DNA of 64,000 nt, from the NCBI GenBank assembly GCA_022520065.1, contig GCA_022520065.1_3942.1. One strand, written 5' to 3'. This DNA is from a phage. The notes below the pieces were generated by a model, which made no database searches, had not been told where the DNA came from, and worked only from the letters and a program-made list of their open reading frames with translations. The position numbers and the translations under genes were made by a program. This document shows positions 5,748-62,485 of the stretch, in pieces; the stretch's first letter is position 1; each line of letters begins with the position of its first letter.

Positions 5748-5754
5748 TCCCTTG

Positions 5755-5783
5755 TTGACTGATTGTTAAGATGGTGTTAATAT
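5755..5783 (+). promoter_or_regulatory. sigma70-like promoter TTGACT-N17-TAATAT
   Basis: Hexamers at 5755-5760 and 5778-5783 with 17-nt spacer; inverted repeat AGATGGTG/CACCATCT (5770-5807) spans the -10. Confidence 0.45.
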
Positions 5784-5826
5784 TCTTTATGGGTATTCTC
5801 ACCATCTTGGCTGATGAGGTGATTAA

Positions 5827-9914: not shown

Positions 9915-10030
9915 AATGACCTCAAAGTTATATTAAATTTTGTATTACATTGAGTATAAAAATAAGCTATAACACCTGACTTGTCAACAGATTTTATAGC
10001 TTATTTGGCAGATTTTTTATAAGGCTACTG

Positions 10031-10104
10031 CCATCCTTCCATACCCTACCTTACCACACCCAACCATACCTAACCAAACTACACCATACAATACCTTATT
10101 AAAA
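10031..10104. repeat. G-free, C/A-rich tract of degenerate (N)ACC repeats
   Basis: 74 nt without a single G on + strand; second similar block 10161-10200. Confidence 0.6.
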
Positions 10105-10483
10105 GACCCTCTTAAAGACCTTTTAAAAAGGTAAGTCTCATTTTAATGTAGCTGAGACTAACTACCCATACATTACCGCACCATATTATACCCTACCCCA
10201 CCATACTTCACTGCACCGAGCCACGCATTACATCACTTAAAAACCCTTTTCAAAGACTCTTAAGTGATGCTGGTGAGTACCCGTTGGTTTATGATGCTCA
10301 GTATACTCACCAAATTTTCTATGTCAACAACTTTTATAAAAAAGTTCTGATAGCTATATGCGTCACGAAACAAAAGATTGTAAACAAGACACCCATTGCA
10401 AAAGATGTGTCCAAAAGCTTACTTGCAACGTATGACAATACAAAGACAACCAGTATAAATAGAATGACTGTACTGAACATAGT

Positions 10484-12850: not shown

Positions 12851-12905
12851 TCCTATATAAGATACAGTATAAGGTACTCTTCCATGAGCACCTTGTCAAT
12901 ACTAA

Positions 12906-15665: not shown

Positions 15666-15683
15666 TTGACAATGTACTTGACA
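15666..15683 (+). promoter_or_regulatory. conserved tandem TTGACAA element in divergent control region
   Basis: GTTGACAAtGTACTTGACAAGGTG, nearly identical to element at 61883. Confidence 0.35.
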
Positions 15684-15862
15684 AGGTGTTAATCTTTGCG
15701 AAGTGGGTTTTTACTTAAAAGGTTACTTAACAGTTTAACTATACAGATACTTTAAAACTCTTAAAAGATTATTTAATAGCTTTTAAAAAGCTTTAAAGTA
15801 TAACGTATAGAATACGTTAAGATAAAAGATTAAAACTTAATAGTTACTTAAAAGAGGCTTAC

Positions 15863-20493: not shown

Positions 20494-20500
20494 TTAATGT

Positions 20501-20529
20501 TTGACAATAGAGTATCAACAAATTAGAAT
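20501..20529 (+). promoter_or_regulatory. sigma70-like promoter TTGACA-N17-TAGAAT
   Basis: Hexamers at 20501-20506 and 20524-20529. Confidence 0.5.
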
Positions 20530-20565
20530 TGGTACTCTTCATAAATTGAGATAGAGGTTTAAATA

Positions 20566-25145: not shown

Positions 25146-25167
25146 GAGCCTCTTCGGAGGCTCTTTT
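25146..25167 (+). terminator. intrinsic terminator
   Basis: GAGCCTC-ttcg-GAGGCTC followed by TTTT. Confidence 0.6.
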
Positions 25168-33339: not shown

Positions 33340-33660
33340 ATGAGCAAAGTTTATAACACTCGTAAATTACAGATTTTCGTACTGTGCCAGTTTATGGCTA
33401 AAGAATACAACTTCTACTATTGTGGTACAGGTTTTATTAGCGATGATGATGGCTCATACCTCCCATTCAAAGAGGCTGTAAAACTCTTCAATGAAGAGAA
33501 AAGTTCTAAGAAAGATATTGAAAAGGTTAAGCTAACCTACAGCAAGAAAGATAAGAAGATTATCTGCCTAGATAACTTTGTGAAAGTTACTGGAGAAGCA
33601 AAAGAGTTTATGGATGAGAGTGAGATTTCATTCACAAGCATCTTGAAAGTAGCTCAGTAA
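33340..33660 (+). CDS. hypothetical protein
   Basis: 106-aa ORF. Confidence 0.4.
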   Translation: MSKVYNTRKLQIFVLCQFMAKEYNFYYCGTGFISDDDGSYLPFKEAVKLFNEEKSSKKDIEKVKLTYSKKDKKIICLDNFVKVTGEAKEFMDESEISFTSILKVAQ

Positions 33661-33711
33661 ACAGATACTATAAGGGGACTGTAAAGGTTCCCTTTTTATT
33701 TTGGAGGTAAA

Positions 33712-35436: not shown

Positions 35437-37218
35437 ATGACTAAATCACTTTATGCAGTACCAGCAGGTTTAAATGCAGATGCTTACAAATCTGGTCATG
35501 TTTACCAGTATCCTAGTGCAACAGAATATTTGATGTTCAACCTGACACCACGTAGCGACAAATGGTTTAACAGTCCATTAGCAATTGATGGTGTAGTCGC
35601 TTTTGGTATTCAACGTTTTGTTAAAGATTACTTGATAGACCACTGGAATGCTACGTTCTTTGAACGTGACAAAAAAGAAGCAATTGACGAAATCTTAGAA
35701 GTCATGAATGGTGTTCTGGGCAAAGATGCTATCGGTCGAGAGCATTGGGAAGCACTTCACGACTTAGGTTATCTACCAGTTGAAGTATACGCTGTAGAAG
35801 AAGGCACAGTTGTCCCTATGCGTGTTCCGATGATTGTTTTCCAGAACACTGTTTCAGGTTTCCATTGGGTAGCAGGTTATCTGGAAGATGCTTTCTCTGC
35901 TGAGATTTGGAAGGCTTGTACCATTGCAACTATTGCATTGCACTACAAACGTATCTGTAAGAAGTGGGCTGACCTTACTTGTGACAACGACTTGCATTTG
36001 CCTTATCAGTGCCATGACTTTGCTATGCGTGGTATGTCCGGCTTTACTGATGACGCATTTAACGCTGTAGGCCACTTAACCAGCTTTAAAGGAACTGATA
36101 GCTTCCCTGCTGTGTATACGGCTAAACGAATCTATGGACAGTCCTACCCAATCTCTGATATTGGTAGCTCTGTACCAGCCACTGAGCACTCTGTAATGTG
36201 TGCAAACATTGCTTGGGAAGGTGGTAATGAGTTGATTGAAGAAGAAAGACGCTTTAAAGGTGAGTTACAAACCTTCCGTCGTTTCTTAACAGAAACTTAC
36301 CCAACTGGTATTGCAAGTATTGTTTCAGATACTTATAACTTCTGGAGAACTGTGTCAGAAATCTTACCAGCACTCCGTAAAGAAATTATGGAACGTGACG
36401 GTAAACTGGTAATTCGTCCTGACTCTGGAGACCCTGTACATATTGTCACAGGGTACAAAGCAATCCATTTAGAGTGTGCTAAAAAGTCTTATTACGAACA
36501 CTTAAGCAAGCTTGAAGCCAGCGACACAATGTTGAATGCTGTTCTGAACATGAAGCTTGAAAACATCAATTATGGTATTGCTGGATGGCTACTGTCAGAA
36601 GGCTACGAAATGGTTGTTGACAGAGAAGACTTTGAAGTTGCTGATACAGTGCTGTTGAAAAACGCATATATGGTTGGTTCTGCAAACGTTGTAACACGTC
36701 CTGTAGCAGAGATTGATGGAGCTATTAAGACCTTGTATAACATCTTTGGAGGAACTATCAACTCTAAAGGTTTTAAGGTACTGGATGAACATATCGGCCT
36801 TATCTATGGTGACTCTATCACGTTGGAACGTGCAAACGAAATCCTGAAGCGTCTGTATGAAATGGGGTTTGCAAGCTCTAACGTGGTGTTTGGTGTAGGC
36901 TCTTACACTTACCAGTACATGACTCGTGACACCTTTGCATTTGCTGTCAAAGCAACTCTTGCAAGCATTGGTGGCAAAGAGATTATGCTTGCAAAAGACC
37001 CTAAAACAGATAGTGGTGTTAAGAAATCTGCCTTTGGTGGTGTAGCGCCTATGTGGGATGGTGATAAGTTGAAAGCTGTAGATGGCTACGGATTCCAGAG
37101 TTTTGCAGATGTACTTGACCACCCAGCTTGTGCTTTACGTTTAGTCTTTAGTGACTCTGAGCAGTTTGGTTACACAACTCTTGGTGATATTCGAAATAAT
37201 ATTGACAAGCAGCTTTAA
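35437..37218 (+). CDS. nicotinamide phosphoribosyltransferase-like enzyme (NAMPT/Namat-like)
   Basis: 593 aa; NAMPT-like GTDS motif (HLTSFKGTDSFPAV), family-level match by memory. Confidence 0.7.
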   Translation: MTKSLYAVPAGLNADAYKSGHVYQYPSATEYLMFNLTPRSDKWFNSPLAIDGVVAFGIQRFVKDYLIDHWNATFFERDKKEAIDEILEVMNGVLGKDAIGREHWEALHDLGYLPVEVYAVEEGTVVPMRVPMIVFQNTVSGFHWVAGYLEDAFSAEIWKACTIATIALHYKRICKKWADLTCDNDLHLPYQCHDFAMRGMSGFTDDAFNAVGHLTSFKGTDSFPAVYTAKRIYGQSYPISDIGSSVPATEHSVMCANIAWEGGNELIEEERRFKGELQTFRRFLTETYPTGIASIVSDTYNFWRTVSEILPALRKEIMERDGKLVIRPDSGDPVHIVTGYKAIHLECAKKSYYEHLSKLEASDTMLNAVLNMKLENINYGIAGWLLSEGYEMVVDREDFEVADTVLLKNAYMVGSANVVTRPVAEIDGAIKTLYNIFGGTINSKGFKVLDEHIGLIYGDSITLERANEILKRLYEMGFASSNVVFGVGSYTYQYMTRDTFAFAVKATLASIGGKEIMLAKDPKTDSGVKKSAFGGVAPMWDGDKLKAVDGYGFQSFADVLDHPACALRLVFSDSEQFGYTTLGDIRNNIDKQL

Positions 37219-37232
37219 AAGTATATGATAAG

Positions 37233-37254
37233 AGGCTCCTACGGGAGCCTTTTT
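37233..37254 (+). terminator. intrinsic terminator
   Basis: AGGCTCC-tacg-GGAGCCT followed by TTTT. Confidence 0.6.
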
Positions 37255-37793: not shown

Positions 37794-40160
37794 ATGCGCA
37801 TGGTAAACGACCACGCAGAAGTGATTAAGAGTTCAACTTCTTTAGAGACGTCTCAAGCACAGATTACAATGACACCTGAAATGTTCAGCCTTTTGAGTTC
37901 TGGTGTATATACCTTTAAAGAAAGGGCAGTGATTCGTGAACTGTCATGTAACGCAGTAGATGCTCAGAAAGAGGCTGGAAAAGAGAACATCCCGTTCCAT
38001 GTGCATTTACCTACTCGTTTTGAGCCTTACTTTGAAGTTCGTGATTTTGGAACTGGATTGACTCATGATAAAGTTATGAGTTTGTACCTAAACTATGGGG
38101 CTTCTACGAAGAATGACTCTAATGACTACATTGGTGCAATGGGTATCGGCTCAAAATCACCATTTGCAATTGCTCAGTCATTCACAGTGTCTAGCTATGT
38201 TGACGGTGTTGTTAATAAGTACTCTGTTTATCTTGAGAATGGTATCCCTCAAGTAACTAAGCTGACCACTAACCCAACAAAAGAACCTAATGGTTTAGCT
38301 GTACGTGTGGCAGTTGCTGACCACCGTATTTCAAAGTTCTTTGAAGAGGCTGGTAATGTATACTCATACTTTGCTGTAAAACCAGAGAGTAATGTGGAGT
38401 ATAATGATATATTAGCAGATATGGATGTGATTGCTCGTGAAGAAGGTGTCTATGATGCCATGACTCATAAGCATAGCTGGCGTTCAAGCAGCAATAGAAC
38501 AGAGTTTAACGTGGTTATGGGTAATATTGCCTACCCAGTTAATATGGAGGCATTACTTGGTGATGATTTCTTCAAAGTATTACCAGAATTTTTCCGCAGG
38601 AGCATAGACCTTGTAAACATCTACATGCCTATTGGTTCAGTTGCTATTGCAGCTTCTCGTGAAGCATTGCAGATGAATGACACGACAAAAAATGTTATCA
38701 TCGAGGCTACTAAAAAGATAACTGAAGCAATTACAAAGGATGTTATCAAGAAAGTTAATAGTCAACCTACACTCATGGATGCTGCACAGGCTTATGCTGA
38801 GTTACGCTTGAACTCACGAGAGATGTTTAATGTTGTGTGTCCAAAGCTAGAGTGGGGAGGTGTTAAGCTTGATTCTCTGGAAGAAGAATTACTAAACATT
38901 CGTCGTGGAATTATCTACGCAGAAGACGGCTCAGTCATTTACGAACGTGACGGTAAAGGTAATATTAAGGTTGATAGGAACGGGAACAATATCCCTAAAG
39001 TAGATTATCTTTATGACCCAGTTGCTTATGTCAAGTTCAACTCTTTAGAGAGTAAGATTCGTGCAACATCGCTTTCCTACACTCAAGAGGCAAGTATGTT
39101 CAATATCTTTGGCGCAATGCGTAAAAGCCAAATTGAACAGTTTTTGTTTGTTATAAATGACCGTCGCAATAAAAACGGTACTGAGAAGACTGTAGGACGC
39201 AATCAAATCTTGCGTGGTGCATGTCGAGACTATGCCAGTGAGTCGAACCTGTTTCACAGATACAATGGTATTGTCTTTGTATTCTCGACTGAAAAAGAGC
39301 TAGATGACTTAATCAATCTACACAAACTTGATAAAAGCTTGTTAAAGATTGTGAAGATGTCTGATAAGGAACACCATTATCAGCGTAAAGAAGCTGTAAG
39401 AGGTGTTGTAAAACTCTGGAAAGCTGTTCCAGCAGAAGGTGTAGCTTCCTATAAAGAGGTTTCAGAGGACTTTGATACAATTGAAGAGCCTCAACTTTAT
39501 ATCAAGGCAGTAGGCGACACTGTTGATGGCGAATGTTTTTGCTCATCTCCAGAAGATGTAGCTAAGTCAGTTGCCAATGTCATTGGGAAGACAGTCTATG
39601 TTTTCCGAAAAGCAAATTGGAAAAAGATACCAGAAGACTGGATTGAAGTAGATGAGAAACTCTTGAACGACAGTTTAACTGATGTTCATTGGATTAATCA
39701 TAACAGGTATATGACACGTATCTATATGAATGGTGTCCTTGACCTTACAAGCAGTTGGATTATTGCCAGAAACTTTACGTTCAATAACAGGAAGATTTCT
39801 CGTGGCTATTGTTATTCACGGGATACAAACAAAACTATCTTCTTAGAAGGTAATGAAGATGCTGTAGAGGCAATGTTTGGTAAAATCCAATACGTTGCTG
39901 CACCGTTTGCATATACTTACACTATTAGTAGGTTGCAAACTTTGAAAGACTGCCTTGACAATGATACAAAGCTGTACAAGAAAATTAAGAAAGCTGGTGA
40001 CCGCATGGTCATTAAGGTGACAAACTACCTTTCAAAAAGAAAACAAGAAAACTTCTTGCTTTCTCATTTAGATTGGAATAAAGTGTCACCCATCGAAGTG
40101 AGTAAGTTCTTAGGCTTTGATGTGAAGTGTGTTCCAGAAGGGACTACAATTTACGATTAA
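37794..40160 (+). CDS. rIIA: rIIA protein
   Basis: N-terminal segment FSLLSSGVYTFKERAVIRELSCNAVDA and NDYIGAMGIGSKSPF closely resemble T4 rIIA. Confidence 0.9.
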   Translation: MRMVNDHAEVIKSSTSLETSQAQITMTPEMFSLLSSGVYTFKERAVIRELSCNAVDAQKEAGKENIPFHVHLPTRFEPYFEVRDFGTGLTHDKVMSLYLNYGASTKNDSNDYIGAMGIGSKSPFAIAQSFTVSSYVDGVVNKYSVYLENGIPQVTKLTTNPTKEPNGLAVRVAVADHRISKFFEEAGNVYSYFAVKPESNVEYNDILADMDVIAREEGVYDAMTHKHSWRSSSNRTEFNVVMGNIAYPVNMEALLGDDFFKVLPEFFRRSIDLVNIYMPIGSVAIAASREALQMNDTTKNVIIEATKKITEAITKDVIKKVNSQPTLMDAAQAYAELRLNSREMFNVVCPKLEWGGVKLDSLEEELLNIRRGIIYAEDGSVIYERDGKGNIKVDRNGNNIPKVDYLYDPVAYVKFNSLESKIRATSLSYTQEASMFNIFGAMRKSQIEQFLFVINDRRNKNGTEKTVGRNQILRGACRDYASESNLFHRYNGIVFVFSTEKELDDLINLHKLDKSLLKIVKMSDKEHHYQRKEAVRGVVKLWKAVPAEGVASYKEVSEDFDTIEEPQLYIKAVGDTVDGECFCSSPEDVAKSVANVIGKTVYVFRKANWKKIPEDWIEVDEKLLNDSLTDVHWINHNRYMTRIYMNGVLDLTSSWIIARNFTFNNRKISRGYCYSRDTNKTIFLEGNEDAVEAMFGKIQYVAAPFAYTYTISRLQTLKDCLDNDTKLYKKIKKAGDRMVIKVTNYLSKRKQENFLLSHLDWNKVSPIEVSKFLGFDVKCVPEGTTIYD

Positions 40161-40166
40161 AGTGTT

Positions 40167-40196
40167 TGACAAGGGGCTTTGAAGCCCCTTAGAATA
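40167..40196 (+). promoter_or_regulatory. promoter-like TTGACA-N18-TAGAAT with palindrome in spacer
   Basis: Spacer is near-palindrome AGGGGCTT-tg-AAGCCCCT. Confidence 0.4.
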
Positions 40197-40239
40197 GCCT
40201 TACAAAATGATTTATTAACTAACAAGAGAGAGTAATAAG

Positions 40240-41349
40240 ATGACTACTAAAACTAAAGCACAGATTGACGCAGAAATTTACGAACTGGTTAAAGAAGGTA
40301 AGCTGACTAAAACAGCTATTGCACAGAAGTTCAATACCTCAACCCGTTCAGTTGGTCGTGCTGTAGAGCGTCATGAAGCAACCTTAAAAGGGAATAAGAA
40401 GGCAACTGCTGCACCAGCTACGAAGACTTTGAAACAAGTTGCTAAGACTTTTAAAAAGAAAGCTGGCAAACCAGTTGAAAAGGTTGTTAAAGATGCTGTA
40501 CAGAAAGCTCCAGTAAATAAACTGCATGAAGCTATGCAGAAAGATGACAAGATTGAGTACATGATTACTGGCGACTCTGTAATTATGACTTACGGTTCAG
40601 AGTCTGAAATTGTTGAATCTACTCATCCGAACTATCAAGAGATTGTAGTTCATGTTGTGAAAGGTGAGTTTAAGAAAGCCTTTGAACTGATGAACATTCG
40701 TAAGTCTATCGAAAACTTCACTCAGGGTGCTATCACAATCAAAGGTGACAAACTATTCTACGGTGCTGTTGAGATGCGTTCTACTCTGGTTGACCGTATT
40801 CTTCACATGATGAAGACTGGAGATAAAGGTTTTGAACGCCTTGTAATGTTCTTTGAAAAACTGATGGAAAACCCATCTAAAGATTCTGTAGAACAACTTT
40901 GGGGCTTCGTATCTCACCTTGATGTTGAAATTGATGAAGAAGGTTACATCATCGGTTGGAAGAAAGTCTCTACTCGTGAAGGCAAGCTGGTTGACTCTCA
41001 CACCTACAAAGTACCTAATGATTTGGGTAACATTGTAGAAATGCCACGTTGGATGGTTGATAATAACCGTAACGTAACTTGCTCTCAAGGTCTTCATGTT
41101 GGTGCTTGGGATTACGTTCGTTGCTTCTCAGGTGATACAATCCTGAAGGTTCGTGTCCATCCACGAGATGTTGTATCTGTTCCAACTGATTACAACGATA
41201 TGAAGATGCGCTCATCCCGTTATGAAGTTGCAGCAATCGTTGATAATCATCGTAAAGTGCTGAAAGCGTGGGATGGTAAGACTGAAGCTTTGCATGTCAT
41301 CGTTGGTACTGCTGGTGAACTTATCTCTCAACGTAAACGTGAAATCTAA
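40240..41349 (+). CDS. rIIB: rIIB protein
   Basis: C-terminal VRVHPRDVVSVPTDYNDMKMRSSRYEV and CSQGLHV resemble T4 rIIB. Confidence 0.85.
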   Translation: MTTKTKAQIDAEIYELVKEGKLTKTAIAQKFNTSTRSVGRAVERHEATLKGNKKATAAPATKTLKQVAKTFKKKAGKPVEKVVKDAVQKAPVNKLHEAMQKDDKIEYMITGDSVIMTYGSESEIVESTHPNYQEIVVHVVKGEFKKAFELMNIRKSIENFTQGAITIKGDKLFYGAVEMRSTLVDRILHMMKTGDKGFERLVMFFEKLMENPSKDSVEQLWGFVSHLDVEIDEEGYIIGWKKVSTREGKLVDSHTYKVPNDLGNIVEMPRWMVDNNRNVTCSQGLHVGAWDYVRCFSGDTILKVRVHPRDVVSVPTDYNDMKMRSSRYEVAAIVDNHRKVLKAWDGKTEALHVIVGTAGELISQRKREI

Positions 41350-41366
41350 TAAGTAATTTCTTAAAA

Positions 41367-41388
41367 GGCTGCTCCGGCGGCCTTTTTT
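41367..41388 (+). terminator. intrinsic terminator
   Basis: GGCTGC-tccg-GCGGCC followed by TTTTTT. Confidence 0.6.
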
Positions 41389-43147: not shown

Positions 43148-43159
43148 GGTTAAGATATA

Positions 43160-43180
43160 GGCTCCTTCGGGAGCCTTTTT
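43160..43180 (+). terminator. intrinsic terminator
   Basis: GGCTCC-ttcg-GGAGCC followed by TTTTT. Confidence 0.6.
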
Positions 43181-45896: not shown

Positions 45897-45925
45897 TTGA
45901 CTCTTTGAGTGTGGTTATCTAATAT
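45897..45925 (+). promoter_or_regulatory. type-A cassette promoter TTGACT-N17-TAATAT
   Basis: Followed by GC hairpin 45936-45956 and conserved leader ending GGAGATTCAAAAATG. Confidence 0.5.
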
Positions 45926-45988
45926 TTGCATCAACGGGGAGGGAATGACCTTCCCCACTAAATAAAGTCCTAAACTGGAGATTCAAAA

Positions 45989-46369
45989 ATGGCATATCGT
46001 GCACCTAAATTCATCAACAAAGACAACTTTCGCAACGCACTGGAGAAGTCACTTGATGAAAATTTTAAAGGTAACATTATCGTTGTTCACGCATTCAATT
46101 TTAAGTATGATATCAACGGGAATAAAATCAACCATTACACGGCAACCATGATAGATGGTACACTTTCAAGTGAAAAAGCCGTACTAAATGCACTTGCAGG
46201 ACGTGGAAAAAACCTGATAAGATGTGATAAGAGACGTTATCAGGGCGGCGCATATGGTTATGATGATGCTATTTATCATCTTGAAAATATGGGCTATCAA
46301 GTAGAAAAAGCTGGAGCATCACAAATCATCGGTAGTGATGGTTATGTAACTATCTTCAAAATTAACTAA
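45989..46369 (+). CDS. hypothetical small protein (array gene 1)
   Basis: ORF behind type-A cassette. Confidence 0.5.
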   Translation: MAYRAPKFINKDNFRNALEKSLDENFKGNIIVVHAFNFKYDINGNKINHYTATMIDGTLSSEKAVLNALAGRGKNLIRCDKRRYQGGAYGYDDAIYHLENMGYQVEKAGASQIIGSDGYVTIFKIN

Positions 46370-46458
46370 TAAAGTACTTTACAAGGGGCTTATAGTTCGA
46401 TAAAGTAAGCCCCAGATAAAGAGCTTTACTACTCAATCCTAAATTGGAGAACTAAAAA

Positions 46459-46716
46459 ATGGCTATTATCAAAAACGTTGTAATTGCTGCAAAAACTCGT
46501 GATGACGCTCGCGTTATGGCTAAAAAGTTATGCGGGAAAGTGGTTGACAACGGAAAAACATCTGCTGTAAGATGGGGCGTAAAGGCTGATAAACATTTAA
46601 TCTTAAAACATAGTTCAAATAACCTTTTTAAAGGTGTAAAATCACTCGGTAAAGTGAATGTTTTCACTAAACAAGGTTACAAAATGCACTTATCATTAAC
46701 TGGCAATTTAATCTGA
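46459..46716 (+). CDS. hypothetical small protein (array gene 2)
   Basis: ORF behind type-B cassette (hairpin 46385-46413). Confidence 0.5.
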   Translation: MAIIKNVVIAAKTRDDARVMAKKLCGKVVDNGKTSAVRWGVKADKHLILKHSSNNLFKGVKSLGKVNVFTKQGYKMHLSLTGNLI

Positions 46717-46804
46717 TAAAGTACTTTACAGGGGGCTTAAAAGCTGATACCTTAAGCCCCAGATAAAGAGCTTTACCAATCAATCCTAAACTGGAGATTC
46801 AAAA

Positions 46805-47317
46805 ATGAAAACTGTAGACGCTACCTTTGAAGTTGTAAAAGAAAAATTCACTATTATTTATGAAGCTGTCAATTGCTTTGAAGCAAGCCATAATCTTGAT
46901 AATTGGGAATTTACAGATGACCATCAAGGTGGTGTGACGATTAAAAATCCTAGCTGTCAGCGTAATGAATTTAAATATGCAATCCCTTTACATTACAGCC
47001 TTAAACAGCTTTCAAGTGACTATGCAAAACAAGGCCGGGCAAATCCATCAAAAGAGGCTTACATCAGCTTACAGAAAGAACTAGAAAGAGATTTAGAGGC
47101 TTCAGAATATAACATTGCCGCGAAAGTTGTAGATGCAAATGGCAGCACTGTTTTAGAAAGTTTTTATATTGGTTATGCTTTCGATTGGTGCTACAGTGAC
47201 GGCGATGATTTAGATGACAGGCTAAAAGAGGAAGTGAACAACGCAGACGCAGAATCTGAAGTATTAGAGCGCTTGGAAGCATTAAAAGATTCAGTGATGA
47301 ATATCTTTAAGAACTAA
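46805..47317 (+). CDS. hypothetical protein (array gene 3)
   Basis: ORF behind type-B cassette (hairpin 46731-46760). Confidence 0.5.
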   Translation: MKTVDATFEVVKEKFTIIYEAVNCFEASHNLDNWEFTDDHQGGVTIKNPSCQRNEFKYAIPLHYSLKQLSSDYAKQGRANPSKEAYISLQKELERDLEASEYNIAAKVVDANGSTVLESFYIGYAFDWCYSDGDDLDDRLKEEVNNADAESEVLERLEALKDSVMNIFKN

Positions 47318-47408
47318 ATAGATTTCTTTACACGGGGCTAACAAGCGGATATGATAGCCCCAGATAAAGAGATTTATCAAATTAACCCTTAAACTAGGAG
47401 ATTCAAAA

Positions 47409-47705
47409 ATGAAATTATCAAATAAAGTTAGGGAAAACCTTAGTAAATTACTCAATAAAATTGATTTTATTGAGACATCAAGAAATAGTCATGATGTTAT
47501 GGAATGGTTACATGGCAAAATAAAAGGCCGTCGTGTAGTAATTTGCTTATGGAATAGTTGCAGGGAGTATAAAAAACCTGTATTGCAAGTTAATATATAC
47601 GATGATACTTTTAAAAGTCCTGTAAAGTCTAAAAGCGATTTATTAGAATCTTATGAGATATCTGTAAGTGGCAAGGTATCACGTAAAGAGGAAACACCAT
47701 GTTAA
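47409..47705 (+). CDS. hypothetical small protein (array gene 4)
   Basis: ORF behind type-B cassette (hairpin 47334-47361). Confidence 0.5.
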   Translation: MKLSNKVRENLSKLLNKIDFIETSRNSHDVMEWLHGKIKGRRVVICLWNSCREYKKPVLQVNIYDDTFKSPVKSKSDLLESYEISVSGKVSRKEETPC

Positions 47706-48031
47706 TAACTGGCATTACTGCAATCATAGCCATTATAGCACTTTATAAGGCATATAAAGCCTATAATCTGGCAAGTAAGGCAATCACGCAGCAGGCTAGC
47801 AATAACCTTGTAGGGAGCTTTCTGGAGCGTTTAAGCGATGAGCAAATAAAGCGGCTAGAGATGAGCTTCAGATATAAAGCGAAAACCTATCAGATAAGTG
47901 ACATCTTCAAAGATGATTTTCAGTTAGTCGATGATTATAATTCTCTGATAAATGCTTTAAATGTCAGTGACTTAAAAAACTACTACGCTGTAATTGTTCA
48001 AGAATTGAGCAAACGAAAACAAAACTGTTGA
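47699..48031 (+). CDS. hypothetical small membrane-anchored protein (array gene 5)
   Basis: Hydrophobic N-terminus; AGAGGA RBS; overlaps gene 4 stop. Confidence 0.45.
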   Translation: MLITGITAIIAIIALYKAYKAYNLASKAITQQASNNLVGSFLERLSDEQIKRLEMSFRYKAKTYQISDIFKDDFQLVDDYNSLINALNVSDLKNYYAVIVQELSKRKQNC

Positions 48032-48056
48032 TACTGGTTTTTAGATAGATTAAATT
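48028..48056 (+). promoter_or_regulatory. type-A cassette promoter TTGATA-N17-TAAATT
   Basis: Followed by hairpin 48067-48086. Confidence 0.45.
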
Positions 48057-48119
48057 ACACATCAACGGGGAGGAAATGACCTCCCCCACTAAATAAAGTC
48101 CTAAACTGGAGATTCTAGA

Positions 48120-48392
48120 ATGTATACTACTAACAACGGTCGCACTTTAAATGTCACACTACGTCACTATGTAGATGGTGTCATGCACTTTGAAGATTTA
48201 CAAGCTGAACAACATATCTTAGATTGGCAAGTAGCAGGACTCCAAAAAACTGCTACGGGATACGGTAAAAAGATTCCAACCAGTTGGAAAGTTCACTATG
48301 AAGGACGTTTGCGCAGAATTTATCAAGATGTGCAAAGCAATAGCGCATCGAGTTACATTATAGTAAAAGGCAAAAAACTGCATTTAACGTAA
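48120..48392 (+). CDS. hypothetical small protein (array gene 6)
   Basis: ORF behind type-A cassette. Confidence 0.5.
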   Translation: MYTTNNGRTLNVTLRHYVDGVMHFEDLQAEQHILDWQVAGLQKTATGYGKKIPTSWKVHYEGRLRRIYQDVQSNSASSYIIVKGKKLHLT

Positions 48393-48478
48393 AGTACTTT
48401 ACAAGGGGCTTATAGTTCGATAAAGTAAGCCCCAGATAAAGAGCTTTACCACTCAATCCTAAATTGGAGAACTTAAAA

Positions 48479-48883
48479 ATGGCTATTAATAACCGTGAAT
48501 TATCAATCTTAAAAGCACGTTTGACCGTTAATCGAATCAACATTATGACATCATCAGCGCCTGATGAGACATTGCACAACATTATCGGAAAGATTCAAAG
48601 CGTTATTTTAGACGTTGAAAACGTAAAAAGCTCATTGGCTGACGTTGCAGCAGGTATCACACTAGATGGCGCACAATATGAAATGTCCGACATGTTAGGC
48701 AAATCAAAGGTAATGAATAAAGAGCTTGATTTAAAGATGTTCCGATTTGCTGTTAAAGTATGGCTATCCGTCGAGTATGACGCTAATTTTGCAATCGCTG
48801 ATTTCTTTGCCACTTGGTTACAACGTAATTTGACAAATCACGATTTTCGTGATGTCTGCGATGCAATTTATGCAGAACTCTAA
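48479..48883 (+). CDS. hypothetical protein (array gene 7)
   Basis: Track start 48464 is TTG; cassette-conserved ATG at 48479; type-B hairpin 48405-48433. Confidence 0.5.
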   Translation: MAINNRELSILKARLTVNRINIMTSSAPDETLHNIIGKIQSVILDVENVKSSLADVAAGITLDGAQYEMSDMLGKSKVMNKELDLKMFRFAVKVWLSVEYDANFAIADFFATWLQRNLTNHDFRDVCDAIYAEL

Positions 48884-48892
48884 AAAATTTTG

Positions 48893-48921
48893 TTGACACT
48901 GGTTTTTAGATAGATTAAATT
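48893..48921 (+). promoter_or_regulatory. type-A cassette promoter TTGACA-N17-TAAATT
   Basis: Followed by hairpin 48932-48951. Confidence 0.5.
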
Positions 48922-48984
48922 ACACATCAACGGGGAGGAAATGACCTCCCCCACTAAATAAAGTCCTAAACTGGAGATTCAAAA

Positions 48985-49188
48985 ATGGCTATTATTAATG
49001 GTTTAACCATTGAAACTACACACATCAAAGATATCAAAGTTGGCGATATAGTCCTTTCCCACGGCGTAGAAAAAACTGTCACTGCAAAGGATATCAAAGA
49101 GGATTTTTTCATGGGTAGGACTCTCTTCGGTGATTCTTATTGCTTAGGCTATCTTGCAGTTTTAAAAGTTGTCAAAAATAACAAATAA
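48985..49188 (+). CDS. hypothetical small protein (array gene 8)
   Basis: ORF behind type-A cassette. Confidence 0.5.
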   Translation: MAIINGLTIETTHIKDIKVGDIVLSHGVEKTVTAKDIKEDFFMGRTLFGDSYCLGYLAVLKVVKNNK

Positions 49189-49273
49189 AGTACTTTACAA
49201 GGGGCTTAAAAGTTGATAACTTAAGCCTCAGATAAAGAGCTTTACCACTAAATCCTAAACTGGAGATTCAAAA

Positions 49274-49816
49274 ATGAAATGTTATCACGGAACTACTCAA
49301 GAAAATTTCCTCAACCTGATTAATAACGGTGATAAACCATCAGGCGCATGGAATTGTTCGGATATGGACGGCAATTTTTACGTGTATCCAGAAAATAAAA
49401 TCTATGGCGACGATGATGAAGAGATAACATCGGAGGGCATTCAGCAAGCTCTAGGGAACGCCACTATTACGGCGGCCTTCCAGATGAAAACCCAAAATAT
49501 TGTTATCTTAGAACTCGATATTCCAGATGATGAGCTAAATGATGATTATTCTTGTGATAATATGTCGAGTGTAGCAAGTTTTACAGAGTACTTTGATGTA
49601 AACTGGATTAAAAAGGTCTATACAACAGAGTTTAACGCTATGTATTCGCCTTTTTGTCTTCCTTCACTGGATAACCCAAATATGAACTATCTTGATGAGA
49701 CATTAGAACTACTTGCTAAAAGTGTTCAACAGTCGGACAGTATTCAGGTTTTTTGTGACATCATGGATACACTGACAGGAAACATCGCAGAAGAGGATTT
49801 AAAGAGCTTTTTCTAA
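49274..49816 (+). CDS. hypothetical acidic protein (array gene 9)
   Basis: ORF behind type-B cassette (hairpin 49201-49229). Confidence 0.5.
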   Translation: MKCYHGTTQENFLNLINNGDKPSGAWNCSDMDGNFYVYPENKIYGDDDEEITSEGIQQALGNATITAAFQMKTQNIVILELDIPDDELNDDYSCDNMSSVASFTEYFDVNWIKKVYTTEFNAMYSPFCLPSLDNPNMNYLDETLELLAKSVQQSDSIQVFCDIMDTLTGNIAEEDLKSFF

Positions 49817-49848
49817 AAACCTATGCAATCACCTTATAAACACTATTT

Positions 49849-49868
49849 AGCCCCTTACAGGGGCTTTT
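49849..49868 (+). terminator. intrinsic terminator-like hairpin
   Basis: AGCCCC-ttaca-GGGGCT followed by TTTT. Confidence 0.45.
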
Positions 49869-49882
49869 GGGAGGCTTAAATC

Positions 49883-50116
49883 ATGCTTACAACCGTTTAC
49901 CTCATCCTTTCTATTTGTAACGGTCATTCATGCGATTTTAAAGGGCTTGAAGAGTTTACAGGAAGTAAAGAAAATGCTATTCAAGTTTGCCAGATAGCAA
50001 GACAAGACTATCCCGCTAGTGATGATATACAATGTTACTTTAAGACAGAAGATGAAGACGGTATCTATTTTGACAGCGTAGATGGTCAGTATGAAATTAT
50101 CATTGAAAAAGACTAG
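49883..50116 (+). CDS. hypothetical small protein (array gene 10)
   Basis: GGGAGG RBS 8 nt upstream of ATG. Confidence 0.45.
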   Translation: MLTTVYLILSICNGHSCDFKGLEEFTGSKENAIQVCQIARQDYPASDDIQCYFKTEDEDGIYFDSVDGQYEIIIEKD

Positions 50117-50142
50117 ACAAGCCTGATAAAAATCTGTAAATT
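50114..50142 (+). promoter_or_regulatory. type-A cassette promoter TAGACA-N17-TAAATT
   Basis: Followed by hairpin 50153-50173. Confidence 0.4.
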
Positions 50143-50207
50143 GTCAATCAACGGGGAGGGAATGACCTTCCCCACTAAGTACAATCCTTAAACTAGGAGA
50201 TTCAAAA

Positions 50208-50549
50208 ATGGCTTATGTAACCGTAATTACCGATAAAGAAAATTCATCTTGGTCAACTCAAGTAAGTGATAAGATGTCACCTATGCAGTGCCTAAAATAC
50301 TTTGAACAGTGGAACAAAGGCGAGGACACAAGCCCCTTTCAAGTGATGCAGATTATCCATGTAGATAACGAAGGGAATAAAACGGTTTTAAATAGTGAGT
50401 ACTACGCAAGCCATTTTGAAACGAGAAGTAAAACAATGAAGCTTTTACGTGAATCCGGTTATGCCCATATCGCCGCGTTAATCTGGGATGACCTGCTAAA
50501 AAACCAACGTATCAGCTATGTAAAACCTGAAAAAATATTCATCAGTTAA
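50208..50549 (+). CDS. hypothetical protein (array gene 11)
   Basis: ORF behind type-A cassette. Confidence 0.5.
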   Translation: MAYVTVITDKENSSWSTQVSDKMSPMQCLKYFEQWNKGEDTSPFQVMQIIHVDNEGNKTVLNSEYYASHFETRSKTMKLLRESGYAHIAALIWDDLLKNQRISYVKPEKIFIS

Positions 50550-50581
50550 TCAATAACTTACAAAAAACTTTTAAAAAAATG

Positions 50582-50600
50582 TTGACAATACCCCTTGACA
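50582..50600 (+). promoter_or_regulatory. tandem TTGACA element (weaker copy of 15666/61883 motif)
   Basis: GTTGACAAtaccccTTGACA. Confidence 0.3.
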
Positions 50601-50678
50601 TTGGTAACTTTGTTCGAGGGGGTTTATCTAAAAGGGATTCACTTAAAAGATTCTTTATAGATAAGCTCAAAAAATTAC

Positions 50679-50708
50679 TTGCAATCAACTATCAAAACAA
50701 GTAAATTA
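50679..50708 (+). promoter_or_regulatory. type-A cassette promoter TTGCAA-N17-TAAATT
   Basis: Followed by degenerate hairpin 50718-50737. Confidence 0.4.
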
Positions 50709-50769
50709 CTAATCAACGGGAAGGCAATAACCTCCCCACTAAATAAAGTCCTAAACTGGAGATTCTAAA

Positions 50770-51300
50770 ATGAACAAATTTCAAGCTATCAACTTCATTC
50801 GTTCAAATGCTGTAATGTCTAAGCCTGTAAAAGATACATACGAATTCCGTTGTAATGGGGTACATTTCGCAACAATCACCAAATCAGAAAACGGGGCTTA
50901 TTACGTTCATCGTCGTAATGTTTCAACCGTTGTAGTCTCTCACTTTATGCAAGCTGTAGCGGAATTATTACCGTTATTCTTAGAGATTTACTTAGATGAG
51001 TGTAAAAACGTTCACAACCACGTTAAAAGCCTTTTAAACGGTTATAAAATGGCTTATGAACGCTCTATCAAGTCCTTAAACAAGTTTTACAATGCACCTG
51101 CAAATACTGTTTCAATGGCTTATGATGTAAACGGTGAGTTAGTTAGTCTCTTTGAAGTGGAAGAAATTAAGCTGTATAATTTACGTCCTAGTGGTTACTC
51201 TAAGACTCTTGGTGAAGGTTTATCCTTTAATATCAAGAACTTAGAAAAAACTTTAAAAGACATTGAAAAAGATATTGACGAGACAATCAAAAGTCTGTAA
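50770..51300 (+). CDS. hypothetical protein (array gene 12)
   Basis: ORF behind type-A cassette. Confidence 0.5.
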   Translation: MNKFQAINFIRSNAVMSKPVKDTYEFRCNGVHFATITKSENGAYYVHRRNVSTVVVSHFMQAVAELLPLFLEIYLDECKNVHNHVKSLLNGYKMAYERSIKSLNKFYNAPANTVSMAYDVNGELVSLFEVEEIKLYNLRPSGYSKTLGEGLSFNIKNLEKTLKDIEKDIDETIKSL

Positions 51301-51303
51301 ATT
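51275..51303 (+). promoter_or_regulatory. type-A cassette promoter TTGACG-N17-TAAATT
   Basis: Lies within 3' end of gene 12; followed by hairpin 51314-51334. Confidence 0.45.
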
Positions 51304-51366
51304 GTCAATCAACGGGGAGGGAATGACCTTCCCCACTAAATAAAGTCCTAAACTGGAGTTATCAAG

Positions 51367-51630
51367 ATGGAAAACGTAGAATTAACCACACTTTTACAAA
51401 TTGCAACCGACAAAGAGAACGTAGCTTTATTTCACCGCATCGAAAGTGATTTGTTCAATGGTGAAATCATCAAAGAGTCTTACGAGGTTGTTGGATTCAA
51501 AGATGGTAAAACATTTGGATTCTTTGACCTCGAAAAAGGCAACGCTGTTACAAAATATGATGTTTTATCTTGTGAGATTCTTACAAGATACAACGAAAAA
51601 AGGCTTGCAACATACGCCAATATGCAGTAA
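51367..51630 (+). CDS. hypothetical small protein (array gene 13)
   Basis: ORF behind type-A cassette. Confidence 0.5.
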   Translation: MENVELTTLLQIATDKENVALFHRIESDLFNGEIIKESYEVVGFKDGKTFGFFDLEKGNAVTKYDVLSCEILTRYNEKRLATYANMQ

Positions 51631-51633
51631 ATT
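51605..51633 (+). promoter_or_regulatory. type-A cassette promoter TTGCAA-N17-TAAATT
   Basis: Followed by hairpin 51644-51661. Confidence 0.4.
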
Positions 51634-51696
51634 ACTAATCAACGGGAGGCGATAACCTCCCCACTAAATAAAACCCTTAAACTAGGAGATTCAAAA

Positions 51697-51945
51697 ATGG
51701 CAACTATCCGCGCTACTGTTAACGAGTTCGGTTTTTCCTCTCTGGATGTTAAATTTGACATTGCAGGCACTGATAACGCCTTTGAAATGGTGAAAGGTCT
51801 TATCAGTCAGACCATCAAAGATTATAATCCTTCGGATGAGTTCTGGGAGGAAACAAAACAAGAAGTTCTCAAGGATGGTTATACTTATCACTATTGGGGA
51901 GAAAAAATCGTCTCCCTGTACTACAACAAACAAGATTATAACTAA
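51697..51945 (+). CDS. hypothetical small protein (array gene 14)
   Basis: ORF behind type-A cassette. Confidence 0.5.
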   Translation: MATIRATVNEFGFSSLDVKFDIAGTDNAFEMVKGLISQTIKDYNPSDEFWEETKQEVLKDGYTYHYWGEKIVSLYYNKQDYN

Positions 51946-51983
51946 TCGACGCAGCGGGGCTAAATAGCCCCAGATACCCTAAC

Positions 51984-52008
51984 AGCCCCTTTAAATAGGG
52001 GCTTTTTT
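51984..52008 (+). terminator. strong intrinsic terminator closing the array
   Basis: AGCCCCT-ttaaat-AGGGGCT followed by TTTTTT; preceded by type-B-like hairpin 51956-51971. Confidence 0.65.
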
Positions 52009-52010
52009 AC

Positions 52011-53590
52011 GTCTATCCAATCCTTATACAATCCCTTTCCCTCACCTTTCCAGAATCTATCCACTGATTCGATAGAACCTATCTCATACCTTAAAAAGCA
52101 ATAACTCTATAGTCTACTCTGTAACCTCTTATCAAATCAACTTAAATAAAAGCCAATAACCCCAGAAAGGGGATGGCCCATTTAAACGCTCTATAAAGCT
52201 CTATAACAGCCTTATCAAACTGACTTAAGGGATTGCATTAACTCACCCTAAAAAGCCCTTTATAAAGCTTCCTAGAGCCTTAAAAGAATCTTATAAGGGT
52301 GTAAGCTTTATCATCTCGTTAGTATTCTTGTGAACTATTAAAAAGGGCTTGGTAGTGTCTTAAAAGTATGTTATAGGGGCTATAAAGTTACTTCAAAGTT
52401 ACGTAAAAGAGGCTATAAAGTTACGTAAATGCTAGCCCCCTTAACATTTTCTTAACAATTTCTTAACAATCCCTACATAGTTATGCTTTTAAGGCACTTG
52501 TTAGCAACTTGTTAGCCCCTTGTTAAATCTCTGTTAAGACCACGTAAAAGCCTTGTAAGAGTCTTTGACATAGCCTTAAAAGCTTCTGTAAAGCTCTATA
52601 AAGAGGTGTCTGTACAGTTGGGGGATAGATACTAGGAAGAGACTTAAAAGAGCTTATAAAGAGCTATAGAGAGCTTTTAAAAGGTATGTTTAAGGAATCA
52701 CTAAGAGGGGAAAGGGAACGATAAGAAAGAGATAGTGACCATGTTAATAGCTTGTTAAAAAGATTAAACACTTGTTAGAAACTTGTTAATTATCTTAACA
52801 AAATAACTCTTAAAAATCAACTTGTTAGCTCTTGTTAGTCATCTGTTAAGGCTCTGTAAAGCCTATGTATCAACTGTTAAGAAACTGTTACACCATTGTT
52901 AGTTCTGTTAAGAAACTGTTAAGACCTTTGAAGAGTTGTTAAGAGCTTGAGAGAGTTGTTAAGAAATTGTTAAGGATATTTTAAAATTTTGCAAAGTACT
53001 TGTAAGGGAGCTGTTAAGGGCTACCAAGCAGATATACATCTTCTACAGATATTTTTGAGTTCCTTCAAAGACCCTAAAAAATGACTTGACAGTCCTATTT
53101 TATAAAAATTTTAAGATTCTGAATAATTACCTATACAGTCTTTTAAAAATACAGGTAGAAACAGGCTTATAAGATACCTTGTTAGTACCGTGTTAGACCT
53201 TGTGAGATAAGGTCTGTAAAGATATTCCTGTTAAGTTTGTTAAAACAGTCTATATAGAGGCTTAGTAGTACCTAGTGAACACCTATAGAGAGTGTCATAG
53301 CTAACCTAGAGATTAAGAGGTGTATAGGAGCTTCTAAGAGGGTATAGAGAGATGGTTAAGATGATTGTATAGGTTGTTTAGAAGGCTTGTTAGAAGAGTG
53401 TTTAGATGGCTATTTAGAAGGGCTATACAGAGGGCTATTAAGACCACTAGATAGTTACTAAGATACTATATAGTACTATATAACTATATATAGAGAGTAA
53501 GATTAAGAAGGTTGTTAAGAAGGGTAGATATTTTGTTCACATATAATGGTGACCCAGAGGTTGGGACAACCGATAAAATTTTATAAAAAT
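52011..53590. repeat. ORF-free island saturated with short degenerate direct repeats (YTGTTARR and related words)
   Basis: No ORF of 60 aa or more on either strand; dense block 52740-52990; tandem 11-mer 52449-52470; TATATA block 53461-53500. Confidence 0.7.
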
Positions 53591-53591
53591 T

Positions 53592-53615
53592 AAAAAGCCC
53601 CCAATTAAGGAGGCT
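53592..53615 (-). terminator. intrinsic terminator for leftward operon
   Basis: On - strand AGCCTCC-ttaatt-GGGGGCT followed by TTTTT; same hairpin design as 17118. Confidence 0.55.
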
Positions 53616-53627
53616 CTTAAGATATTT

Positions 53628-61882: not shown

Positions 61883-61900
61883 TTGACAAAGTACTTGACA
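61883..61900 (+). promoter_or_regulatory. conserved tandem TTGACAA element in divergent control region
   Basis: GTTGACAAaGTACTTGACAAGGTG, nearly identical to 15666 element. Confidence 0.35.
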
Positions 61901-62032
61901 AGGTGTAGGCTTATAAATACTTAGAAGATAACTTAAAAGGTTCCTCTAAAAAGGCTATTTAAACAGATATCTTTCTGGATATCTATCTTTTATCTTAAAA
62001 GCCTTTTAAGAGGTCTTATAAGAGGCATACCA

Positions 62033-62404: not shown

Positions 62405-62485
62405 TTTTAAAAGGTGTTGACAGACTCTACAAAGTTGCTCTAAAGTCTGTCACATCAAACAACAAATGAGAGAAGAGAGTAAAAT

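Follow-up and report, generated by a model that had tools for sequence, protein, structure and literature searches.

The 79-nucleotide (nt) gap between the genes rIIA and rIIB in a 64,000-nt stretch of phage DNA (contig GCA_022520065.1_3942.1; the whole stretch is called the window below) contains a 30-base-pair (bp) element that is probably a composite promoter and stem-loop cassette of the promoter-early stem-loop (PeSL) type, with a hairpin that would attenuate read-through from rIIA and/or protect the 3′-end of the rIIA message. From the sequence features of this element, its conservation and its relation to other cassettes of the same genome, as described below, we infer promoter activity, a transcription start site and an influence of the hairpin on RNA stability or on read-through. 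The design has already been described in T4-like phages and constitutes no new principle; the added value is modest, namely that Felix O1-like phages, too, have PeSL-type cassettes and gene shuffling bounded by them. The window itself belongs to a myovirus of the Felix O1-like type (Felixounavirus, Ounavirinae). A 1.2-kb stretch around the element is 98.3% identical to Escherichia phage VpaE1_ev035 and has matches in 297 phage records, of which 231 match at least 80% of its length.

The gap holds a TTGACA hexamer, an 18-nt spacer and a TAGAAT hexamer, arranged relative to the two genes as follows.

37794–40160, plus strand: rIIA coding sequence (788 amino acids; PHROGs E 1.7e-189), read-through RNA from which would contain the hairpin
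40158–40160, plus strand: rIIA stop codon TAA, inside the A/T-rich TAAAGT that opens the element
40166–40171, plus strand: −35 hexamer TTGACA, matching the consensus at 6/6 positions
40171–40179, plus strand: 5′ arm of the inverted repeat, AAGGGGCTT, with a GGGG core invariant in all relatives
40172–40189, plus strand: spacer, AGGGGCTTTGAAGCCCCT, 18 nt
40180–40181, plus strand: palindrome centre TG (the RNA loop is UUGA, 40179–40182)
40182–40190, plus strand: 3′ arm, AAGCCCCTT, completing a perfect 9+9 repeat
40190–40195, plus strand: −10 hexamer TAGAAT (5/6), directly 3′ of the hairpin, where the U-tract of a terminator would be
40202, plus strand: predicted transcription start (A), 7 nt past the −10 hexamer, placed from sigma-70 promoter geometry
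40224–40232, plus strand: purine-rich, conserved Shine-Dalgarno-like AAGAGAGAG, 7 nt before the rIIB ATG
40240–41349, plus strand: rIIB coding sequence (369 amino acids; PHROGs E 2.2e-89), the gene served by the promoter
41363–41386, plus strand: canonical intrinsic terminator after rIIB (UCCG loop and T-run), annotated in phage AYO145A

An earlier note on this DNA had described a TTGACA–palindrome–TAGAAT layout between rIIA and rIIB; the layout and both gene identities (the latter by PHROGs) hold, and its coordinates, 40167–40196, shift one base lower to 40166–40195. The inverted repeat is perfect, with 9+9 nt around a 2-nt centre, and takes one base from each hexamer, while the A/T-rich lead-in GATTAAAGTGT contains the rIIA TAA. 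As RNA, the spacer folds into an 8-bp stem, AAGGGGCU-UUGA-AGCCCCUU, with a 4-nt loop and a predicted stability of about −12.5 kcal/mol. The string TTGACA-N18-TAGAAT has its sole zero-mismatch match in the window at this position, which is also one of three 11/12 sigma-70-like sites between 33 and 47 kb. Among 51 promoter-like sites in the window (at least 10/12 hexamer matches), the rIIB site alone has a perfect hairpin of 7 bp or more lying wholly within its spacer, and any such site arose in 3 of 100 first-order Markov simulations; chance is excluded because the element is conserved in relatives.

To describe this conservation, rIIA–rIIB junctions were gathered from 30 IMG/VR loci, 16 metagenome loci (individual loci are given L numbers below) and several GenBank phages, yielding 36 unique element-bearing sequences; a scan of the sequence collection with the element pattern returned no contigs beyond those already gathered. 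The GGGGCT/AGCCCC arms and both hexamers are kept in relatives down to 66% rIIB identity. The −35 box reads TTGACA in 35 of the 36 unique sequences (TTGACT in the sequence shared by L028 and L070), and the −10 box reads TAGAAT or TAAAAT in all of them. Within Felixounavirus the −35 box is invariant, the −10 box again takes either form, the arms are invariant apart from one G to A change (L004, L031), and polymorphism is seen in the centre, in the 5 nt before the −35 box and in the 6 nt after the −10 box. Across the relatives the loop takes the forms TTGA, TCAA, GAAA and GCAA, and the discriminator and both flanks vary as well. Sister clades with 66–84% rIIB identity (the SUSP/Moogle-like loci L021, L023, L027–L029, L069 and L070–L072) carry TTGACA-GGGGCT-GAAA/GCAA-AGCCCCT-TAGAAT, with a 17-nt spacer. 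Compared with these clades, the element of the window is 83–87% identical and the first 120 nt of rIIB 81–87%, against 53–72% for the 40 nt upstream and 68–80% for the 5′ untranslated region.

Furthermore, more distant relatives carry other hairpins at the same junction, and rIIA–rIIB synteny holds in every relative examined. In L032 (59% rIIB identity; upstream gene confirmed as rIIA), TTGACA is followed by AAGTGGTC-TAATAA-GGCCACTT. The Kolesnikvirus junctions (phiEa21-4, SE5, phi63_307, L073) carry GGGCTG-GAAA-CAGCCC without recognisable sigma-70 hexamers, so that the hairpin persists there even where no promoter can be recognised. L075 (30% rIIB and 37% rIIA identity, E 2e-50) has a UUCG hairpin, GGTTGCAAC-TTCG-GTTGCAGCC, overlapping TTGCAA-17-(TGA)TACAAT, that is, TTGCAA-17-TGATACAAT. 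No U-tract follows the hairpin in any relative, including L032, Kolesnikvirus and L075. Because the junction is either conserved or re-occupied by hairpins, promoter boxes and hairpin both look selected.

These comparisons bear on the reading that the promoter is real and the palindrome has no present function, being an inherited terminator or cassette piece (a GGGGCT/AGCCCC module) that turned into a spacer and was kept through constraint on spacer length and composition and the youth of the clade. We regard this as unlikely. It would account for the missing U-tract, the nil stem covariation and the tolerance of a broken pair in three lineages (described below), and the 5′ half of the element is shared with a family of cassettes elsewhere in the genome (family 1, below), an overlap that points to shared ancestry through duplication or recombination. 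Nevertheless, the arms are held at 66–84% rIIB identity where flanks and loop have diverged, the unrelated hairpins of L032, Kolesnikvirus and L075 point to repeated selection for a hairpin at this junction, and Kolesnikvirus keeps its hairpin without a recognisable promoter.

That a promoter lies upstream of rIIB, as the earlier note had proposed, is supported indirectly by the perfect −35 and 5/6 −10 hexamers and by their conservation while the intergenic DNA diverges; a conserved promoter of the host sigma-70 type for rIIB is thus well supported at the level of predicted sites. The GenBank record of AYO145A likewise annotates an rIIB promoter in silico. In Felix O1, reverse transcription PCR (RT-PCR) put the maximum of ORF2 (rIIB; ORF, open reading frame) at 10 min and that of ORF1 (rIIA) at 25 min (PMC3185647, Table 3), a difference in peak time that fits a separate rIIB promoter.

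The comparison with phage T4 separates what is shared from what is not. T4 middle promoters use a MotA box, which contains TGCTT, at −30 in place of a −35 box; the rIIB element has a plain TTGACA and a −35 region, GTGTTTGACAAGG, with no TGCTT, and a MotA-dependent middle promoter was rejected for want of a MotA box. For Felix O1, Whichard et al. reported no proteins that modify RNA polymerase (PMC3185647). In T4, rIIB transcripts arise from rIIA read-through as well as from separate rIIB promoters close to the rIIA end; the likeness consists in an internal promoter at the rIIA–rIIB boundary that uncouples rIIB expression from that of rIIA. T4 has almost no gap between the two genes and is not known to have a hairpin there.

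Elsewhere in the window, at 15666–15686, 61883–61903 and 12891–12899 (minus strand), a further promoter pattern was noted: a TTGACA..GTACTTGACAAGGTGT motif is present in both divergent-promoter regions, and TTGACAAGG occurs five times in all against 1.06 expected, with 4/5 occurrences intergenic. Strong promoters of this phage may favour AAGG just after the −35 box; AAGG also starts the rIIB hairpin arm.

The earlier note had further suggested that the palindrome could act as a hairpin modulating rIIA read-through. Of the roles considered for the palindrome this one has the most support, which comes from analogy with PeSLs, whose stem-loops lowered lacZ expression downstream (PMC2839356); the hairpin has no U-tract and its stem shows no covariation. 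In stability the hairpin is comparable to the true terminators of the phage (−10 to −12.5 kcal/mol), and it resembles the intrinsic terminators at 37233–37250, 41367–41382 and 43159–43176 in its G/C-rich 7–8-bp stem, its 4-nt loop and its position just after a stop codon. The true terminators have UNCG loops and T-runs, and the promoter-linked G4/C4 hairpins have neither; the terminator at the end of rIIB (41363–41386), which closes the rIIB transcription unit, serves as comparator for the U-less hairpin.

Several observations weigh against the composite-cassette interpretation. A canonical intrinsic terminator was ruled out, since the tail (UUAGAAUAGCC, TTAGAATAGCC) contains no U-tract (taken as about five or more U among the 8 nt directly after the stem) and the score is negative. 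The T-tail score of the hairpin is 0.14–1.8, compared with 3.5–5.3 for the terminators at 25146, 37233, 41367 and 43159; an approximate d'Aubenton-Carafa-type score is negative, and a consensus terminator scan did not list the hairpin. The alignable relatives yielded no compensatory pair in the stem, either by pair counting or by RNAalifold, and single-sided, pair-breaking changes occur in three lineages (G to A in L004/L031, C to A in L069). Selection for structure rather than for sequence is not proven, because no stem change is compensatory. As for the promoter, an 18-nt G/C-rich spacer is suboptimal for sigma-70; Whichard et al. list neither an rIIB promoter nor a hairpin in Felix O1, and their RT-PCR was end-point and gel-based (PMC3185647); the searchable literature contains no mapped transcription start or 3′-end for any Felixounavirus.

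Within the stem, 6 of the 8 pairs never vary and none has changed on both sides, and RNAalifold returned the hairpin as the sole consensus structure in the rIIA–rIIB gap. GNRA loops (GAAA, GCAA) occur in four clades, and departures from Watson–Crick pairing in stems of this class are mostly G-U on the plus strand (L072, L032, the family-1 copy at 49189 and family-2 copies), with exceptions in L004/L031, L069 and the family-2 copy at 50689–50769. From these loops and departures we lean towards a role at the RNA level on the plus strand. A function on the minus strand was rejected: the genes from about 15.8 to 52 kb all lie on the plus strand, and the minus-strand tail, TTGTCAAAC, is no terminator either. 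A search of Rfam over 39800–40600 (E up to 10) gave chance-level matches only.

Intercistronic stem-loops that stabilise the upstream mRNA, such as repetitive extragenic palindromic (REP) elements (malE–malF) and the hairpins at processed phage mRNA 3′-ends, offer a second comparison. The likeness is a stable hairpin without a U-tract just after a cistron in a polycistronic unit, and the rIIB hairpin could likewise block 3′-exonucleases and set unequal levels of neighbouring genes. It differs in being far shorter than REP pairs or RNase III sites and in being embedded in a promoter. Such a 3′-protective role for the rIIA mRNA and partial termination appear equally possible.

A separate A/U-rich hairpin, GAAAACAAGAAAACUUCUUGCUUUC followed by UCAUUU, lies inside the rIIA 3′-end (40038–40064, plus strand; folding free energy −11.1 kcal/mol, z −3.2 against shuffles) and is given as an in silico terminator in the record of phage Tribble, though within the coding sequence.

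The proposed mechanism can be stated briefly. Unmodified host RNA polymerase would read the sigma-70 promoter and start the rIIB mRNA at about 40202; as this start lies downstream of the palindrome, transcripts from the rIIB promoter would lack the hairpin. The 28 nt that precede rIIA contain no credible promoter. The upstream unit would comprise a promoter-like site (37202–37229), two small ORFs and rIIA, and read-through from it would transcribe the spacer, so that the read-through RNA would present an 8-bp G/C hairpin 11 nt past the rIIA stop, followed by UAGAAU, the transcript of the −10 box. The RNA:DNA hybrid at hairpin closure would be UAGAAUAGC, A/U-rich as the transcript of the −10 box, and for this reason partial termination is conceivable. 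Most likely, the hairpin would attenuate read-through and/or give the rIIA mRNA a protective 3′-end; the output of rIIB would then depend chiefly on the rIIB promoter and less on upstream transcription, the net effect being a compact stop-and-restart insulator. If this is right, the 79-nt gap would explain the differing timing and dosage of rIIA and rIIB in a Felix O1-like phage, restart promoters fused to hairpins would answer the question, raised by the Felix O1 genome paper, of how transcription proceeds past many hairpins, and the PeSL concept would be extended past T4-type phages.

PeSLs were described in the T4-like phages RB49 and phi1 (Arbiol et al. 2010, PMC2839356), and such cassettes are known from the T4-like phages RB49/phi1, PST and nt-1 (PMC2839356; Comeau et al. 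2014, PMC4122927). In their layout an upstream stop codon lies in an A/T-rich lead-in and a Shine-Dalgarno sequence and ATG lie at the 3′-end; in lacZ assays one stem-loop reduced expression downstream of it to an extent similar to rrnB T1, the strength of the promoters made them difficult to clone (PMC2839356), and ORFans were shuffled by recombination between PeSLs (PMC2839356; PMC4122927). The rIIB element has all sequence features of the class with a stem-loop between −35 and −10: near-consensus sigma-70 boxes (11/12), an A/T-rich lead-in with the upstream stop, a Shine-Dalgarno sequence and start codon on the 3′ side, and a U-tract that is dispensable. The likeness extends in part to the genomic setting: sequence-related copies lie in a hyperplastic small-ORF region, and insertion/deletion (indel) breakpoints fall inside these related cassettes, whereas no such event is seen at the rIIB copy. 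Two differences are evident. The phage belongs to the Ounavirinae (Felix O1-like) and is not a T4-type myovirus, which is a taxonomic and not a mechanistic limit, and the rIIB copy lies between two conserved core genes rather than beside ORFans. No description of PeSL-like cassettes in Felix O1-like phages was found in the searchable literature.

RB49 itself (L080, 1115–1176, minus strand) has an extended −10 box, TGGTATAAT, before rIIB and a GGGCG...CGCCC hairpin just downstream.

Folding of all intergenic gaps of the window revealed many further composites of promoter and hairpin, among them two repeated families of intergenic cassettes between the small ORFs at 46.3–51.7 kb.

46370–46458, 46717–46804, 47318–47408, 48393–48463 and 49189–49273, plus strand: the five cassettes of family 1
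48032–48119, 48884–48984, 50117–50207, 50689–50769, 51301–51366 and 51631–51696, plus strand: the cassettes of family 2
37202–37253 and 33643–33694, plus strand: composites with the hairpin directly after the −10 box
5748–5826 and 20494–20565: composites with arms flanking the −10 box
12851–12905, minus strand: composite TTGACAAGGTGCTC...GAGTACCTT
62405–62485: a further composite

Family 1 reads TAAAGTACTTTACA-N-GGGGCTTA, then 11–13 nt that include a −10-like box, then TAAGCCCCAGATAAAGAGCTTTAC; a −35-like TTTACA abuts the 5′ arm, the −10 box lies in the loop, an outer stem is present and there is no U-tract. The 21-nt 5′ half TAAAGTNNTTKACANGGGGCT matches the rIIB element and the five family-1 cassettes at 46.3–49.3 kb, where chance alone would give 0 matches. 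In one family-1 copy a T is missing from the 5′ arm and an A from the 3′ arm (GGGGCTA/TAGCCCC), which leaves the pairing intact. Family 2 reads (TTGACA-17-TAAATT)-ACACATCAAC-GGGGAGG-AAATGA-CCTCCCC-CACTAAATAAAGTCCTAAACTGGAG, also without a U-tract; its hairpin lies just past the predicted start and would sit at the 5′-end of the new transcript.

In the composites at 37202–37253 (TTGACA-16-TATGAT) and 33643–33694 (TTGAAA-17-TACTAT), a canonical hairpin and T-run directly follow the promoter-like site; transcripts starting there would begin inside the 5′ arm and escape the terminator, and upstream transcripts would be stopped.

The region of the two families (45900–52100) is hyperplastic, in that coverage of it reaches 80% or more in just 39 of 256 matching records, and the number of matching places per record is 4–9. 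In ASO1A (L076), two copies of the cassette at 49189–49273 enclose an additional ORF. REP5 (L078) is without the ORF at 46805–47317, which lies between the cassettes 46717–46804 and 47318–47408, and without the ORF at 51367–51630, which lies between the family-2 cassettes 51301–51366 and 51631–51696. Indel breakpoints relative to ASO1A and REP5 thus fall inside 3/5 family-1 and two family-2 cassettes, and single-ORF indels with breakpoints in cassettes are the shuffling pattern of PeSLs.

The same breakpoints could suggest that the palindrome is mainly a DNA-level hot spot of recombination or template switching, acting through a hairpin or cruciform at replication and corresponding, among core genes, to the cassettes by which small ORFs are shuffled. 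This is the least probable of the readings considered, and we think it very unlikely. The centres of the relatives are only TG or CA, exact reverse complements with no intermediate seen (within Felixounavirus TTTGAA or TTCAAA, never TTCGAA or TTTAAA), so the palindrome has undergone one inversion or more; on a neighbour-joining tree built from the flanks, 10 changes of loop state are required. On that tree, however, control biallelic sites of equal frequency average 7.1 changes, with a maximum of 10. The loop-state homoplasy is mostly a matter of general mosaic recombination, and because this mosaicism explains most of it, recurrent flip-flop of the palindrome was not established. Moreover, at 9 bp each the arms are short for extruding a cruciform, and in the relatives examined, all of them syntenic for rIIA–rIIB, no indel or rearrangement starts at the rIIB element.

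An operator overlapping the promoter, the other role that the earlier note had offered for the palindrome, is disfavoured by the evidence. Under this reading, a dimeric phage or host protein would bind the dyad as DNA and repress or activate the rIIB promoter, the candidates being rIIB itself, through a helix-turn-helix (HTH)-like segment at its N-terminus (autoregulation), or a MerR-like factor; we judge it quite unlikely. The perfect 9+9 dyad does sit exactly in the spacer, and conserved arms around a variable centre, without compensatory changes, suit sequence-specific contacts as well as they suit a hairpin. Residues 10–45 of rIIB (40267–40374) give sub-threshold matches to several HTH families, the best being HTH_Tnp_ISL3 (23.4 bits, E 4e-5 with a 70-residue fragment; cut-off 27.4), and Arbiol et al. 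had speculated on a protein targeting GGGG...CCCC stem-loops (PMC2839356). On the other hand, the same arms recur at other places of the window with 4-nt loops (3356, 35400), with 11–13-nt loops (the five family-1 cassettes) and in reversed order as AGCCCC...GGGGCT (49849, 51984), and a dimer of fixed geometry would not accommodate every one of these forms. The GGGCT/AGCCC half-sites of Kolesnikvirus are separated by 6 nt instead of 4, and the arms of L032 are wholly different, while the putative recognition helix of rIIB (invariant residues T33, S34, R36, S37, G39, R40, A41, E43, R44 and H45) does not vary across clades whose palindromes differ. No HTH match reaches its Pfam cut-off.

Promoters of the MerR type (merT, zntA, copA, soxS) place a dyad operator in an over-long spacer of 19–20 bp that needs regulator-induced distortion. 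The rIIB element is alike in having a dyad within its spacer and differs in the length of that spacer, 18 bp here and 17 bp where sister clades carry this dyad, and in the use of its arms with other spacings elsewhere in the genome. A spacer of 18 or 17 bp lies outside the MerR-type range, so the promoter is not of this type. No MerR-family regulator was identified at the rIIB N-terminus, which gave weak generic HTH matches and was the only place examined, no systematic proteome scan having been made.

Residues 10–45 are almost invariant across Ounavirinae rIIB proteins. Between rIIA and rIIB, RB49 has a 43-residue HTH ORF, RB49p274, which matches Pfam CENP-B_N above the cut-off. Its derivation as a split-off N-terminal HTH of rIIB was rejected; BLASTP gave no alignment, and RB49 rIIB has an N-terminal segment of its own.

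Returning to the composite cassette, a stronger form of the interpretation combines two proposals: that the 30 bp are a bifunctional stop-and-restart insulator in which the −10 box doubles as the weak, A/U-rich RNA:DNA hybrid of a U-less terminator, and that G4/C4 cassettes act throughout the Ounavirinae as recombination joints for small ORFs. We put this combination forward tentatively, as possible and rather doubtful. If it were true, read-through from rIIA would end exactly where new initiation begins, the Ounavirinae G4/C4 cassettes would be convergent with or homologous to the PeSLs of T4-like phages, and large virulent enterobacterial phages in general, not the T4 family alone, would be organised by cassettes of this type. 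Felix O1-like phages are widely used in Salmonella and E. coli biocontrol and in typing, and the short stop-and-restart modules, together with the cassette-bounded region at 46–52 kb, would provide natural insertion points and ready-made expression parts for phage engineering.

Two other intergenic regions of the window carry repeats. The first, at 51946–53627, comprises about 1.7 kb without ORFs or tRNAs between convergent gene blocks and contains the short repeats CTTGTTAG, CTGTTAAGA and TTCTTAACAA at 11-nt spacing in both orientations, an iteron-like arrangement. The second, at 9915–10283, is a 369-nt ORF-free region between divergent genes; it contains ACC(A/C)TACC-like repeats in a row as well as a palindrome, ATAAGCTATAA...TTATAGCTTAT, that is long and imperfect.

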